DNA of 64,000 nt from positions 53,643 through 117,642 of the IMG/VR virus record IMGVR_UViG_3300037502_003770; one strand, given 5' to 3'. Position numbers and translations under genes: made by a program. This document shows positions 8,183 to 58,309 of this stretch, piece by piece; the stretch's first letter is position 1; each line of letters begins with the position of its first letter. The notes under the pieces were generated by a model, which did not search any database, was not told where the DNA came from, and saw only the letters and a program-made list of their open reading frames with translations. Source of the stretch: a virus.

Positions 8183-8713
8183 ATGAAACCAATAGTAATC
8201 AAAATTTATTCTGATAATTTCTTTTATTGTGAAAAAAATATTTCAGTTTATAAAAAATTTAATAATTTAGCGTTTTTTTATTTTAATTCATTAAGTTTAA
8301 GTTATAATTTTGAACCGTATTATAATTTTATAAATGAATTTCGTATTTATATGGATAAAACCGTTTTTAATCTTTTATTAAGAATTATTTATTCAAATAA
8401 AAAATATTTAAAATCAGATAATTTTAATAATTATTATTTTATTTTGGCTAATAAACTTTCTCTTGATAGTGATACAGTATGTTTATTATTAAAAAATAAA
8501 ATTATTAGGTTTAATGAGACTTCAGTACATAATCGTAGAAGTTTGCTTGTTTGTAAAACTGCACTAGAATATGATTTTAACAATTTTAAATATATTCCAA
8601 ATGAATTACAAAAAAATACTGAAATTTTAGCTTTATATAAATCTGAATTTTTCAGACAATCAATAAAAAAATTTAATATAAAAAATTCTAATTTTTATGA
8701 AAATAATAATTAA
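8183..8713 (+). CDS. FamA-long protein (N-terminal motif of the form I-x-I-F-N-N-N-F-F-Y-x-E; C-terminal DUF4116-like repeat)
   Basis: N-terminus MKPIVIKIYSDNFFYCEKN; C-terminal YIPNELQKNTEILALY resembles the DUF4116 repeat. Confidence 0.55.
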   Translation: MKPIVIKIYSDNFFYCEKNISVYKKFNNLAFFYFNSLSLSYNFEPYYNFINEFRIYMDKTVFNLLLRIIYSNKKYLKSDNFNNYYFILANKLSLDSDTVCLLLKNKIIRFNETSVHNRRSLLVCKTALEYDFNNFKYIPNELQKNTEILALYKSEFFRQSIKKFNIKNSNFYENNN

Positions 8714-8733
8714 ATTTAAATAAACTTAACAAT

Positions 8734-9088
8734 ATGAATAACATATATATTTCTAATGACTTTTTTATTTATATAGATTATGACTTGGGTTATAATTTAT
8801 TTTTAATAAATTTTAAAGAAACAAATATTTTTAGCGAATATAGTCTTTATTACAAGCGACAACTTATCAAACATAAAACCAAAGATGTTTATTTTTTTTA
8901 ATATTATTGAAATTATTGAAAATATAGATATTTCAGAAAAATTTTTAATTAATATAATAGAATTTTTCTATAGTAATGAATATAGTATTCATCTTGGTAT
9001 TAATAATATTAAATATTTACCTAAAAAATATGTAACCGTTTATGAAAATATTATTAAATATTTCCACTTTAAACCTTTAAGAATTTAA
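8734..9088 (+). pseudogene. FamA gene split by a frameshift in a T8 tract (ORFs 8734..8901 and 8885..9088)
   Basis: ORF1 MNNIYISNDFFIYIDYD... ends in GTTTATTTTTTTTAA. ORF2 starts inside the same T-run in the +1 frame and carries the DUF4116-like INNIKYLPKKYVTVYENIIKYF. Confidence 0.45.
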
Positions 9089-10375
9089 CCTCTTAACTGT
9101 CTCGGTATTACGGATAATACCTCTATCTCCTCATGTAAACAATCGGAGATTGCATTTGAATACTTCTTCATTATATTATAACTACCATTTACATCAGCAT
9201 TTATAACTATCCCTTTTGAAGATTTAAATAATTTTGTTGTAATCCTACTACCCAAATAACTATCTTTCTTACATAAAGACTCATTATCTAAAAAAGAACA
9301 CTTACTTGTATAAGATTCCTCTTGTCTTACAAGTTTGATTCCCTTTTCAAATAACTTGTACTCTAACATAGAAAATAATTTATAATAAGGTATCATTACA
9401 AAATTTTGATTATTTTTCTTTCCATTATTAATGTCTTGTTTCCATTCTTTATTTCTACCTACTACTAAAGTATGATAGTTTTTTGAAACTAAATGATTCA
9501 CTAATAATTTACTTATTTTATGTAAATAATCTTCTATTTTGTTATTTCTTCTTAAATTTAATTTTTCTATCCTTTTAGAAGTATAAACTCCTTTATCTAA
9601 CTTACTTCTAAACTCAGCTAACTTCTTATTATAATATTGATTTATATTCTTTAATGGTTTACCATTTATTATTAAAGGTTGTTTATTATCAGAAAAAGTT
9701 AATGTTAATAAATTATTAACACCTACATCCGCTGAACACACCCTTTCTTTAGAAGATGGTTTAACAAAAAGAGATGTATCTATTTTTTTAGAATAAACAA
9801 CTTCTATTACATAATATCCATATTTAGGAACAATTCTTACTTGTTTAATATTAGTTTTATTCACTATCTTACTTTCTAATAAAATAGAAGTCATACTTAA
9901 CTTAATCAACCCTTTAGAAAGAAATTTCTTATCTTTAGAAATAGCACCTTTTTCATAGGTTGTGATGTATTTTCTATTTTTATCTAAATATTTAGGAATA
10001 TTAACCTTTTCATTATATTTTCCTTTTAATTTAAGTTTTAATAAAGAAAAGAAAGATTTAAAGTTTTTATCTACTAATTTTAAAGTTTGTTTAGATACTT
10101 TATCAGGTAACTCTCTATAATCAAAAGAATCTCTTACTTTATAATAGAGTTGTAAATAAGAAAGATATTTTTTTGTTTCAAAGAAATGTTGTCTTACAAT
10201 AAAGAGGGCATAGTTATAGAGATTTCTACTTTTAGTACAAAGAGTTTCACATTCAGAAAAGAATTTATGATTAGGAGTTATTGTATATTTTTGTACTCTA
10301 TTAACTAACATTTAAAATAAGTATATTTATATATAAATAGTAAAAATAAATTATTTTTATTAACAGAAAGGTGTA
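9075..10375 (-). mobile_element. tnpB-only IS200/IS605-like element (no tnpA)
   Basis: Left end tatataaatagtaaaaataaattat at ~10330-10356 is shared with the three TnpB-like paralog elements. Boundaries approximate. Confidence 0.55.
9085..10311 (-). CDS. tnpB: TnpB (IS200/IS605 OrfB-type RuvC-like nuclease, classic zinc-finger form)
   Basis: 408 aa. RuvC-I SADVGVNN, RuvC-II LVVGRNKEWKQ, YTSKCSFLDNESLC zinc-finger region, RuvC-III DVNGSYNIMKK. N-terminal YNYALFIVRQ is TnpB-like. Confidence 0.85.
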   Translation of the reverse strand: MLVNRVQKYTITPNHKFFSECETLCTKSRNLYNYALFIVRQHFFETKKYLSYLQLYYKVRDSFDYRELPDKVSKQTLKLVDKNFKSFFSLLKLKLKGKYNEKVNIPKYLDKNRKYITTYEKGAISKDKKFLSKGLIKLSMTSILLESKIVNKTNIKQVRIVPKYGYYVIEVVYSKKIDTSLFVKPSSKERVCSADVGVNNLLTLTFSDNKQPLIINGKPLKNINQYYNKKLAEFRSKLDKGVYTSKRIEKLNLRRNNKIEDYLHKISKLLVNHLVSKNYHTLVVGRNKEWKQDINNGKKNNQNFVMIPYYKLFSMLEYKLFEKGIKLVRQEESYTSKCSFLDNESLCKKDSYLGSRITTKLFKSSKGIVINADVNGSYNIMKKYSNAISDCLHEEIEVLSVIPRQLRG

Positions 10376-10501
10376 TAAAATATAATATAAAAATATTAAC
10401 ATTTTCAAAGTCTGAAATTTTAACAACATATATTAAAGGATTTTTGAATTCTTCAGAAAAAAAGTATTCTTTAAATAAAAAAGACTTATTAAAAATAAAA
10501 A

Positions 10502-11062
10502 TTGATTTTTATGAAAATAACGATTTATAATAATAACTTTCTTTATATAGAGTGTTTAACTACAGCAGTATGTTATAATTTACATATAGATAATTTTTTT
10601 GATTCATTTAGGTATAATTACATAAATTATTTTAGTCAAAATAAATACCCTATTAGTTATGATTTTTTGTTAAGTCTTGAAAATTATAAACAATACATTT
10701 TACCTGAAAATATTTATATCTTTCTTATAAAGAAATATAAAGATAACATCAGATATACATCTTCTGAATTATTTAATAAATTTGGAATAATTTATTCGTC
10801 TATTACATATAATATATGTTTAGAATTAATTAAAAATTATAGTGATTTTAAATTGAGTAAAATACCATCTAAATTTAGGGACATTAATTTATGTAAAGAA
10901 GCTTTAAAAAATAATTACTTATATTTAAGTTCAGTACCTAAAAAATTAAGAAATAATAAGGAAATACTTAATGTATATTTAGAATCTTTTATTAAATATA
11001 CTAAAGAAAAATACGGTATTTCTGAAGAAAATATAGCTAAATTAAAAAACTTTTCTCTTTAA
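10502..11062 (+). CDS. FamA-long protein
   Basis: MKITIYNNNFLYIE...; C-terminal LCKEALKNNYLYLSSVPKKLRNNKEILNVY is a DUF4116-like repeat. Confidence 0.6.
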   Translation: MIFMKITIYNNNFLYIECLTTAVCYNLHIDNFFDSFRYNYINYFSQNKYPISYDFLLSLENYKQYILPENIYIFLIKKYKDNIRYTSSELFNKFGIIYSSITYNICLELIKNYSDFKLSKIPSKFRDINLCKEALKNNYLYLSSVPKKLRNNKEILNVYLESFIKYTKEKYGISEENIAKLKNFSL

Positions 11063-11063
11063 A

Positions 11064-56943: not shown

Positions 56944-57225
56944 ATGAATCAATATAAAATAACACATCGAGATAAAAATAATCCAAACACAAACCCTTTA
57001 GATGATAAATATAAAGTAGAATATAAAAATCCCTTTAAAAATCCAACAATTATTACAACAAAACAAATTATTGAAAATATTGAAAAAGGTGATGAATATT
57101 ATATTGTTATTGATAATAACAAAACAATTGTAAAAGTTGTAAAGAAAACAACAGGTGAAAAATATATTACTACAATGTCTGATGACACTATAGATAATAA
57201 CTTATTAAATTTACCTCCATATTAA
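56944..57225 (+). CDS. small protein, paralog of 56664 (possibly DUF3892-like)
   Basis: 93 aa; 1-nt intergenic gap; ends NNLLNLPPY. Confidence 0.35.
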   Translation: MNQYKITHRDKNNPNTNPLDDKYKVEYKNPFKNPTIITTKQIIENIEKGDEYYIVIDNNKTIVKVVKKTTGEKYITTMSDDTIDNNLLNLPPY

Positions 57226-57226
57226 A

Positions 57227-57550
57227 ATGCAAAAATTAGTTGATACAAAAAAACTTGTTAATGTAAGAATTTTAAGTAAATCTAATTTAAATGATGGTTT
57301 TTATTTTGGTACTGCTCATCATATTACAGATGGAACTATTGGTGATATTATTATAACTTATGAGGAAATAGTTTATTTAGTGAGAAATTCTTATCCGATT
57401 TATATAAATTCCACAAATGAACGTTTAAAATATCAAAATTTTAACTTGTATTCATATGATATTACAACATCAAGTCAAACAAATAGTTTTGAAAATTTAA
57501 GGTACGCATCTTATTATGAGGAATTATATATTAATGAATTTTTAAAATAA
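57227..57550 (+). CDS. hypothetical protein
   Basis: 107-aa ORF, tightly packed. Confidence 0.4.
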   Translation: MQKLVDTKKLVNVRILSKSNLNDGFYFGTAHHITDGTIGDIIITYEEIVYLVRNSYPIYINSTNERLKYQNFNLYSYDITTSSQTNSFENLRYASYYEELYINEFLK

Positions 57551-57553
57551 TTA

Positions 57554-57907
57554 ATGAATATGAAAACAGAAGTTAATGAATGGAAAGATGGTAGGTTTGC
57601 TATTTTTGATTCCGAAACAAAAAAGATTCTTGATGATGCACAAGGTTATGGTTATAAAACCAAACAAAATGCTTTAAAAGCTATGTGGTATAAATTTAAA
57701 GGTGGTAAAGAAAAGAAAGATGAAGAAAAGGAATTATTTAATAAATGGATAAAAGAAAATAAAAAAGTTTATAATACAATAAATGATTATTTTGAATCAG
57801 CTTTTAAAGAAATAGCAAGAGGTGAAACAACTATTAAAGAAATTTATCAAGAAATAGAAGAAGAATTTAATATTAAAATACCTGATTATGTAATTAAAAA
57901 TATGTAA
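57554..57907 (+). CDS. hypothetical protein
   Basis: 117-aa ORF. Confidence 0.4.
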   Translation: MNMKTEVNEWKDGRFAIFDSETKKILDDAQGYGYKTKQNALKAMWYKFKGGKEKKDEEKELFNKWIKENKKVYNTINDYFESAFKEIARGETTIKEIYQEIEEEFNIKIPDYVIKNM

Positions 57908-57913
57908 CCTTTT

Positions 57914-58309
57914 ATGAATAAAATAACTATTTTTAATGAAAATTTTATTTATTTAGAAATGATTATTTCTAATATGGAATATTTAAATATAACAAATTTA
58001 TATATAAATAAATACACTTTAAAATCAATGGATAAAGAAGATGAAAATGTTGTCTCATTTATAGCATCTATTTTATTAGATAGATTAAATTTATTTAAAG
58101 ATTGGTATTTTTATTTCTATAAAATAACAGTAGAAAGTGAATTTAGATATATAAGTTTTGTATATAATACAATAATGAATCAACAAGAATATTATGATAT
58201 TATATATAAGATATATTTAAAAGATAAATCTATTATTGAAAAATATAGAGAAATTTTAACACCTAAAGTTGTCAGAAATCTTTTAGAAAATAATAAAATT
58301 ATTTCTTAA
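57914..58309 (+). CDS. FamA protein
   Basis: MNKITIFNENFIYLEMI; C-terminal YLKDKSIIEKY is DUF4116-like. Confidence 0.5.
   Translation: MNKITIFNENFIYLEMIISNMEYLNITNLYINKYTLKSMDKEDENVVSFIASILLDRLNLFKDWYFYFYKITVESEFRYISFVYNTIMNQQEYYDIIYKIYLKDKSIIEKYREILTPKVVRNLLENNKIIS

Follow-up and report, generated by a model that had tools for sequence, protein, structure and literature searches.

Some forty otherwise mostly dissimilar small proteins of an inferred freshwater jumbo phage share an N-terminal peptide that might conceivably serve as a capsid-delivery tag

The internal proteins of phage T4 are small and basic, and their capsid-targeting sequence (CTS) is MKTYQEFIAE. They form a diverse set in which the CTS is the only common part (PMC3012670), and the T4 protease gp21 strips N-terminal propeptides (PMC5694885). 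In phage SPN3US, which has a head paralog family of 20 members, the diverged proteins gp53 and gp54 have identical 15-residue N-termini with A-x-E-12 and S-x-E-15, phiKZ gp93 is cleaved at SLE-13, and the number of head paralogs differs among related giant phages (PMC5694885). Here we describe a family, FamA, of 40 open reading frames (ORFs) that open with a common short peptide. They are encoded in a 64,000-nt stretch of viral DNA (positions 53,643 to 117,642 of IMG/VR record IMGVR_UViG_3300037502_003770; hereafter, the window), all of them on the plus strand and within positions 8183-58309.

The shared N-terminus has the form M-x(0-4)-I-x-I-[FY]-N-N-N-F-F-Y-x-E. An earlier note on this DNA had proposed about 40 plus-strand genes with such a start, which our count bears out, and the four examples that it quoted are in place at 10511 (MKITIYNNNFLYIE), 18927 (MIQIFNENFFYLEGG), 45979 (MRIKIFNNNLFYFE) and 48363 (MQIEIFLDYGFYLE). 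The 40 ORFs include 15215 and a frameshifted remnant of 39 amino acids (aa) at 22402, with one extra ORF, 14608, counted as doubtful. When the sequences are anchored on Y-x-E, the Glu at position 0 is present in 39 of the 40 and replaced by Asp in one, the Tyr at -2 is near-invariant, and Ile is found at -11 in 34 members and at -9 in 29. The distance of this Glu from the first Met is narrowly distributed, with the residue numbered 13 in four ORFs, 14 in 16, 15 in 12 and 16-20 in eight (13-15 in 32/40).

The motif is far beyond chance. We scanned all six frames of the window with a 12-column position-specific scoring matrix (PSSM), and all plus-strand matches of at least 12.7 bits lie at the beginning of an ORF, at a distance of 1-8 residues from its first Met; the lone comparable match elsewhere lies inside a repeated minus-strand ORF. 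Leave-one-out PSSM scores exceeded 8 bits for 33/40 members. A looser regular expression gave about three N-terminal matches per shuffle on mononucleotide-shuffled sequence, and no match of substance on the minus strand. Outside the reported range, a 194-aa ORF at 60772-61356 starts MQKVKLTLFDNEFRFGE, following the FamA pattern with Phe replacing the invariant Tyr; it scores under the PSSM cut-off and may be a divergent member.

Codons at the conserved positions are used much as in the rest of the window (Tyr TAT, 90% versus 87%; Glu GAA, 87% versus 91%). The conserved Ile codons are a mixture of ATA, ATT and ATC, and the Asn and Phe positions are likewise at background usage. The DNA repeats found in the gene arrays do not correspond to the N-terminal motif itself, but to recent duplicates and to junctions of a gene end with the next start codon. 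Together, these results indicate that the motif is conserved by selection on the peptide, in old paralogs, and not as a DNA repeat, as had been argued from the sequence.

We clustered the bodies, with the motif trimmed, by composition-corrected BLAST and jackhmmer, including reversed, shuffled and non-family decoys, none of which gave a match at E≤1e-3. Five small subfamilies and 24 singletons were obtained, the subfamilies being seven long forms (8183, 10511, 11064, 11635, 48363, 49770 and 50249), one group of three to four short forms and three pairs. Full-length identity within subfamilies is 25-54%. A hidden Markov model (HMM) of the 50 post-motif residues, trained on half of the family, scored the other half no better than decoys. 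The earlier claim that the sequences diverge almost completely after the motif thus stands across the family, but not within subfamilies. A conserved beta domain of about 50 residues behind the motif, seen by eye when the first 55 residues were aligned, was rejected because it failed HMM cross-validation, and we claim no larger common domain, since the post-motif HMM recognises nothing across halves. The motif is the sole family-wide shared element, so that a conserved tag on variable bodies is a fair description.

The C-terminus of the seven-member long subfamily is a genuine DUF4116 (PF13475) alpha-solenoid unit, a firmer assignment than the DUF4116-like repeat first proposed. Against a gathering score of 24.9 bits, 10511 passes at 34.9 bits, four other members reach 17.5-22.8 and 35/40 have no match, so that Pfam recognises DUF4116 in one subfamily and not in FamA as a whole. 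An exhaustive profile search with the long forms retrieved 1544 proteins at E≤1e-3, nearly all of them multi-repeat and aligned to profile positions ~90-150; all five multi-repeat matches examined were DUF4116. The best viral structure matches are likewise DUF4116 proteins, from Klosneuvirus and its relatives. The short forms carry a common C-terminal N-x-L-N-L-K-Y-Y-L, and the two architectures, one with the DUF4116 end and one ending in NLLNLKYYL or PFFYKKR, are as previously described. One external protein, P0013 (1425 aa), has DUF4116 repeats joined to a NEL (IpaH-type E3 ligase) domain. This fusion, together with the multi-unit solenoids found elsewhere, hints that DUF4116 solenoids act as target-binding modules of effectors.

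In the AlphaFold2 (AF2) model of 10511, a hairpin (residues 3-6/10-14) is followed by a low-confidence segment (25-51) and then by a confident helical domain, whereas the model of a short form (predicted local distance difference test score, 57.8) was too poor for fold comparison. The motif peptide is predicted to form a beta-hairpin, with strands I-x-I-F and F-F-Y-x-E connected by an N-N-N turn. FamA bodies are basic, with a median isoelectric point of 9.07 versus 6.18 in 75 other ORFs of the window (p = 9e-4) and a net charge per 100 aa of +4.4 versus -0.55; they are also richer in aromatic residues (20% versus 13%).

Any explanation of FamA should account for a peptide that is always N-terminal, with near-invariant Tyr and Glu at a fixed distance from Met1, for its conservation as protein among dozens of old paralogs, for unrelated small basic bodies and for the turnover of copies among relatives described below. 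We tentatively favour, at well below even confidence, a reading by analogy with the CTS, in which the N-terminal peptide would be a shared address and processing tag. The tag would dock each new FamA protein to one common partner, for which the scaffold or core of a prohead under assembly is the likeliest candidate, as with the CTS of T4 internal proteins, and a Glu-specific prohead protease would clip it after the invariant Glu (aromatic-Tyr-x-Glu, residue ~14). The small, basic, variable bodies, some of them DUF4116 alpha-solenoid binding modules, would then stay with the DNA inside the head and enter the next host by injection. We chose this reading because the CTS or propeptide of internal head proteins is the only experimentally established phage system of the same logic; it is also the nearest documented analogue, which had not been named before for these genes. 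In its full form, a hairpin of a new kind that delivers at least 40 different, quickly diversifying small basic proteins to the capsid of a giant freshwater phage, to be injected along with its DNA, the proposal is possible but doubtful.

As in the T4 internal proteins IPI, IPII, IPIII and Alt, otherwise unrelated small proteins have nothing in common but a short N-terminal peptide with a terminal Glu (PMC3012670, PMC5694885), and the set is polymorphic among related phages. At the level of sequence, [F/L/I]-Y-x-E of FamA is also a T4-type hydrophobic-x-Glu site located ~10-15 residues from Met1. However, the FamA peptide has 14 residues instead of 10, shows no sequence similarity to the CTS, has a predicted beta-hairpin structure and, two residues before Glu, contains Tyr where T4 has Leu or Ile. 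FamA also comprises ~40 genes, compared with three to four in T4, and its packaging and cleavage are only proposed. Likewise, the head paralogs of phiKZ and SPN3US (family A, with PF12699, and family B, with 20 members) are large tandem families of a size that varies among relatives, and their propeptides of ~13-15 residues ending in x-Glu stay identical while the rest diverges (PMC5694885). Unlike them, none of the 40 FamA members showed homology to PF12699 or SPN3US family B in Pfam and PHROG searches, and FamA proteins have Y-x-E instead of S/A/G-x-E and are much smaller (7-31 kDa). DUF4116 repeat proteins of giant viruses, protists and bacteria share with FamA the unit that ends the seven long members, but they typically contain 4-15 tandem units and lack the FamA N-terminus, whereas the long forms have one to two units and 33/40 members have no DUF4116 signal. 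Bacillus phage G also contains tens of copies of one small protein type, a ~35-copy zinc ribbon (PMC7824862), although there a whole recognisable domain is repeated, and in FamA only a 14-residue peptide. Homology tests failed for each of these four groups, and we thus place FamA in none of them; as a whole, it is outside every described family, without being categorically new.

Several observations weigh against a capsid tag. Capsid, portal, scaffold and prohead-protease genes were seen neither in the window nor in 10 kb of upstream sequence from the related contig L138, and the Glu-specific protease is an assumption. Tyr at P3 differs from the known protease motifs (L/I-x-E in T4; S/A/G-x-E in phiKZ and SPN3US), and there is no similarity to the T4 CTS, PF12699 or PHROG internal-protein families. 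Additionally, the hairpin could be integral to a small fold instead of a removable tag, because the AF2 model of 10511 extends it, with low confidence, into a third strand and the short forms end in a strand-like LNLKYY. More than 40 distinct cargo species would surpass anything documented. Finally, the FamA arrays lie among auxiliary, non-structural genes, and four of the genes (18565-19710) split an ABC permease (BPD_transp_1, 17756-18568) from an ABC ATPase (19729-20520), as if FamA had been inserted into a transporter operon.

This setting would better suit non-virion proteins, on which the hairpin would remain uncleaved and dock, by strand addition, to one host or phage partner, such as a protease or its adaptor, a polymerase or other FamA proteins. 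Variable bodies, including the DUF4116 solenoids, would recruit or block targets, forming an intracellular arsenal for host takeover or counter-defence comparable to poxvirus Ank/PRANC or giant-virus repeat families, in which a conserved short motif accompanies a variable body of repeats. We regard this as a serious possibility, although on balance an unlikely one. It rests on the same conservation pattern as a capsid tag and agrees with the position of the genes among auxiliary and not morphogenesis genes, with the target binding suggested by multi-unit DUF4116 solenoids elsewhere, once with a NEL E3-ligase effector domain, with the phage having its own ClpS adaptor, and with the fast turnover among relatives (ratio of nonsynonymous to synonymous substitutions, dN/dS, 0.08-0.86). 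Yet the partner is hypothetical, there is no match to known anti-defence or defence families, and neither the strict N-terminal place and fixed Glu-Met1 distance nor the basic charge is specifically predicted. Less probable still, in our judgement, is that FamA genes are ordinary paralogs that diverged by tandem duplication from one small beta-rich protein, the hairpin, perhaps with the last strand, being a slow-evolving folding nucleus with no address function and the long forms arising by C-terminal fusion to a DUF4116 unit. Overlapping tandem arrays with neighbours 25-54% identical, the retention of both N- and C-terminal motifs in short forms, and the three-stranded sheet in which AF2 places the hairpin are what such a history would leave. 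Duplication is also general in this genome, as indicated by several other paralog groups in the window, and phage G shows a comparable expansion, with ~35 zinc ribbon copies (PMC7824862). Nevertheless, even a trained HMM finds no family-wide signal in the 50 post-motif residues, the architectures clearly differ (helical solenoid, short beta-rich forms and a 266-aa form), the near-invariance of Tyr and Glu across otherwise dissimilar bodies exceeds that of a usual folding nucleus, and AF2 confidence is low for the beta part.

Two other explanations are much weaker. The motif uses the AT-richest codons, overlaps between genes measure 1-20 nt and the strongest DNA repeat of the short-form array is the junction TTAAAATATTAYTT-ATG-A, which would suit a nucleic-acid signal, with the start region and the preceding gene end acting as a translation-initiation or coupling element, or as a cassette recombination junction, and the peptide as a by-product. 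This is very improbable: conserved sites are amino-acid sites with background-like synonymous variation, the intervening codons vary freely, the DNA repeats correspond to C-terminal junctions and not to the N-terminal motif, and the motif is also present in the first genes of arrays, which have no FamA gene upstream. The earlier note had instead suggested secretion signals, leader peptides or polymorphic effector and immunity families, and we consider that an export signal, the leader of a ribosomally synthesized and post-translationally modified peptide (RiPP) or a polymorphic toxin/immunity tag has next to no likelihood, since only the general layout, a conserved N-terminus on variable bodies, speaks for it. 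Unlike the true signal peptides that exist in the window, for example in ORFs 28427 and 31620, FamA N-termini have no hydrophobic h-region, AxA site or lipobox. A Sec or lipoprotein signal was rejected, the first 14 residues having a mean hydropathy of 0.33 and being polar (N-N-N) in the middle, with Glu at the end, as was a membrane-protein reading, with a transmembrane-like 19-mer segment in just 1/39 members. Neither did RiPP precursors hold up, because the bodies (40-250 aa) far exceed RiPP cores and Pfam matches in the window included no radical-SAM, lanthionine, YcaO or peptidase/transporter genes that could serve as maturation enzymes. No toxin or defence domains were found in FamA, nor toxin domains or a secretion apparatus in the window, which speaks against a polymorphic toxin/immunity system.

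To examine the distribution of FamA, we searched sequence databases with both proteins and motif patterns. Pfam and PHROG gave nothing for any of the 40 members other than DUF4116, PDB sequence searches with long and short profiles gave nothing meaningful, and PADLOC gave isolated weak matches only; the earlier observation that the whole family has no characterised match thus persists. Nothing similar was found in INPHARED (megablast, tblastn), and IMG/VR scans, seeded with proteins or using a motif DNA pattern, gave no relative, the pattern matches being chance and non-ORF. A degenerate motif pattern in JGI metagenomes identified no FamA gene among the 120 single-match stretches listed, whereas a stricter pattern in GTDB genomes gave five internal chance matches and no carrier. 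A word-indexed search with the N-terminal 42 residues of 38 members produced 31 candidates and two matches, both of them the source contig. In word-indexed and exhaustive protein searches, full-length relatives were orthologs in a few related contigs only. FamA is therefore a lineage-specific, fast-turnover multigene family.

The flanking genes are 86-98% identical among relatives whose FamA content differs. For instance, between a 328-aa gene and the OmpA gene the window contains six FamA genes plus a TnpB gene, and L138 three FamA genes without TnpB. Some FamA members of the related contigs L128 and L130 lack an ortholog in the window, and the converse is also true. The dN/dS of orthologous FamA pairs (0.08-0.86) spans a range similar to that of neighbouring genes, indicating that these are real genes under uneven constraint. 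In 17 ortholog pairs, the motif was 85% identical, the 30 residues that follow it 66% and all later residues 79%, a pattern consistent with a tag-linker-body layout.

Even if read in the plainest way, a family with 40 copies within 50 kb, taking up about a fifth of the window, matches or exceeds the largest lineage-specific expansion reported for a phage. If the tag is real, the principle of T4 internal proteins, one address and interchangeable cargo, would extend to dozens of genes gained and lost among near-identical relatives, and would provide a short transferable tag together with a catalogue of candidate injected effectors against a freshwater host. A packaged set would be by far the largest packaged effector arsenal known in any phage, with a tag portable for protein packaging. 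Since the sequences come from a lake sampled over 20 years, one could follow directly how copies are gained, lost and selected.

Proteins of the window match a metagenomic contig of 312,694 bp in IMG sample 3300059473, the 20-year co-assembly of Lake Mendota (PMC11374980), and its sequence is also present in SRR12611921; close relatives are found in ENA assemblies ERZ28593594 and ERZ28593586, IMG 3300043489 and ERR4869753. The window has 21% GC, and nearly all its genes are on the plus strand, tightly packed or overlapping. Most of its proteins have no family match. Recognised genes encode a PHA02142-type RNA ligase, an AAA ATPase, an OmpA-family protein, a canonical TnpB, an endolysin-like glucosaminidase, a DNA methylase, an ABC permease and ATPase, a metallophosphoesterase and an outer membrane protein beta-barrel. 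A tRNA-Met (CAT) lies at 24030-24104, ~90 nt from the end of the second TnpB-like copy described below. The flanks in relatives contain an SbcCD-like gene, primase, PhoH, an ATP-dependent DNA ligase and a split aminoacyl-tRNA-synthetase-like gene, the first four just outside the region that matches the window. From the overlapping genes in one direction, the RNA ligase, the glucosaminidase, the tRNA and these four genes of relatives, we infer that the source is an uncultured, very AT-rich freshwater jumbo phage, with neither a capsid nor a terminase gene in the window. Its host probably belongs to the Bacteroidota, judging by the look of signal peptides and lipoboxes in the window.

The first FamA array starts with a 176-aa long form (8183..8713, MKPIVIKIYSDNFFYCE) with a sub-threshold DUF4116 match, and a 55-aa short form (8734..8901, MNNIYISNDFFIYID) in which Asp replaces Glu. 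It continues with long forms 10511..11062 (183 aa, MKITIYNNNFLYIE, with the DUF4116 unit at its C-terminus), 11064..11633 (189 aa), 11635..12198 (187 aa) and 12200..12685 (161 aa). The doubtful member, 14608..15213 (201 aa), has FFYE at residues 20-23, with the motif out of register, and precedes four short forms: 15215..15442 (75 aa, ...IDINTGHTKYFE), absent from the original list; 15429..15623 (64 aa, ending NLKYYVNKN); 15607..15855 (82 aa); and 15856..16149 (97 aa), which runs past LDLKYY into the end of a TnpB-like element. A 73-aa short form (17535..17756) is followed by the four genes between the ABC transporter genes, 18565..18930 (121 aa, MINIFTENFFYLE), 18927..19280 (117 aa, MIQIFNENFFYLE), and short forms 19274..19480 (68 aa, ending LNLKYY) and 19486..19710 (74 aa). 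Nine overlapping short forms of 65-76 aa form a tandem array at 20520..22402 (starts at 20520, 20711, 20908, 21105, 21314, 21514, 21741, 21966 and 22190), most of them terminating in L-x-L-K-Y-Y-L over the start codon of the next. The frameshifted remnant (22402..22606), also missing from the original list, has its N-terminus (MKIEIKSTYFTYYE) and its C-terminus (NLLKLKYYI) in different frames and directly precedes the second TnpB-like copy.

Further downstream, also on the plus strand, are 32498..32809 (103 aa) and the long form 32793..33293 (166 aa), whose tail runs into the third TnpB-like copy, followed by 35478..36278 (MTIYIFNNNLFYLE), the longest member with 266 aa, 36279..36761 (160 aa), 36755..37147 (130 aa) and the short form 38864..39100 (78 aa). 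Five overlapping members of 84-97 aa (45728..47099; starts at 45728, 45979, 46242, 46532 and 46806) have the canonical M-x-I-x-I-F-N-N-N-L-F-Y-x-E, two of them with the PFFYKKR C-terminus. The last members are the long forms 48363..48887 (174 aa), 49770..50252 (160 aa, with an ATG start within a TTG ORF beginning at 49749) and 50249..50815 (188 aa), and 57914..58309 (131 aa, MNKITIFNENFIYLE). Spacing between genes within arrays ranges from -20 to +20 nt, frequently with ATGA overlaps.

Three copies, 86% identical, of a 440-aa TnpB-like ORF are found on the minus strand (16105-17430, 22617-23939 and 33249-34577), in a repeated unit of ~1.37 kb. This ORF has no Pfam match, although it shows weak, sub-threshold TnpB-related matches (TIGR01766 and TIGR01765, E ~1e-3) and the RuvC-like motifs GIDMNPNN, FIEDLS and DAVNASIEI. 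Every copy starts right after the C-terminal L-K-Y-Y codons of a FamA gene, followed by AAAATA, and FamA 3' ends thus look like the landing site of the element; the reading frames of FamA genes 15856 and 32793 continue into it. A canonical RNA-guided TnpB (NF040570, 165.7 bits) is encoded at 9085-10311, also on the minus strand, within the first FamA array, and is missing from the same place in L138. The 25 nt upstream of it (10332-10356) are 100% identical to 17448-17472, upstream of a divergent TnpB-like copy, which suggests a common element end or promoter.

The window also contains cell-like auxiliary genes for a ClpS adaptor (30740-31012), a peptidyl-tRNA hydrolase (47096-47635), a Bax1-I/YccA-like membrane protein (55071-55817) and an SPFH/Band_7 protein (31620-32429), and the phage ClpS could matter should FamA N-termini be processed. 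In L128, two genes of 647 and 439 aa (10365-13612), of which the second encodes an Anticodon_1 domain, resemble a class I aminoacyl-tRNA synthetase split in two; they come directly behind the ortholog of FamA gene 36755, a place taken by unrelated small genes in the window. Other paralog groups of small genes in the window lie at 51767-54577 (51767/53804/54042/54305 and 52375/52881/53200) and 56664-57225 (56664/56944). The first of these groups opens with M(N)KTIEQLFQE, its Glu not being kept in all four members, and this start loosely resembles the T4 CTS, MKTYQEFIAE.

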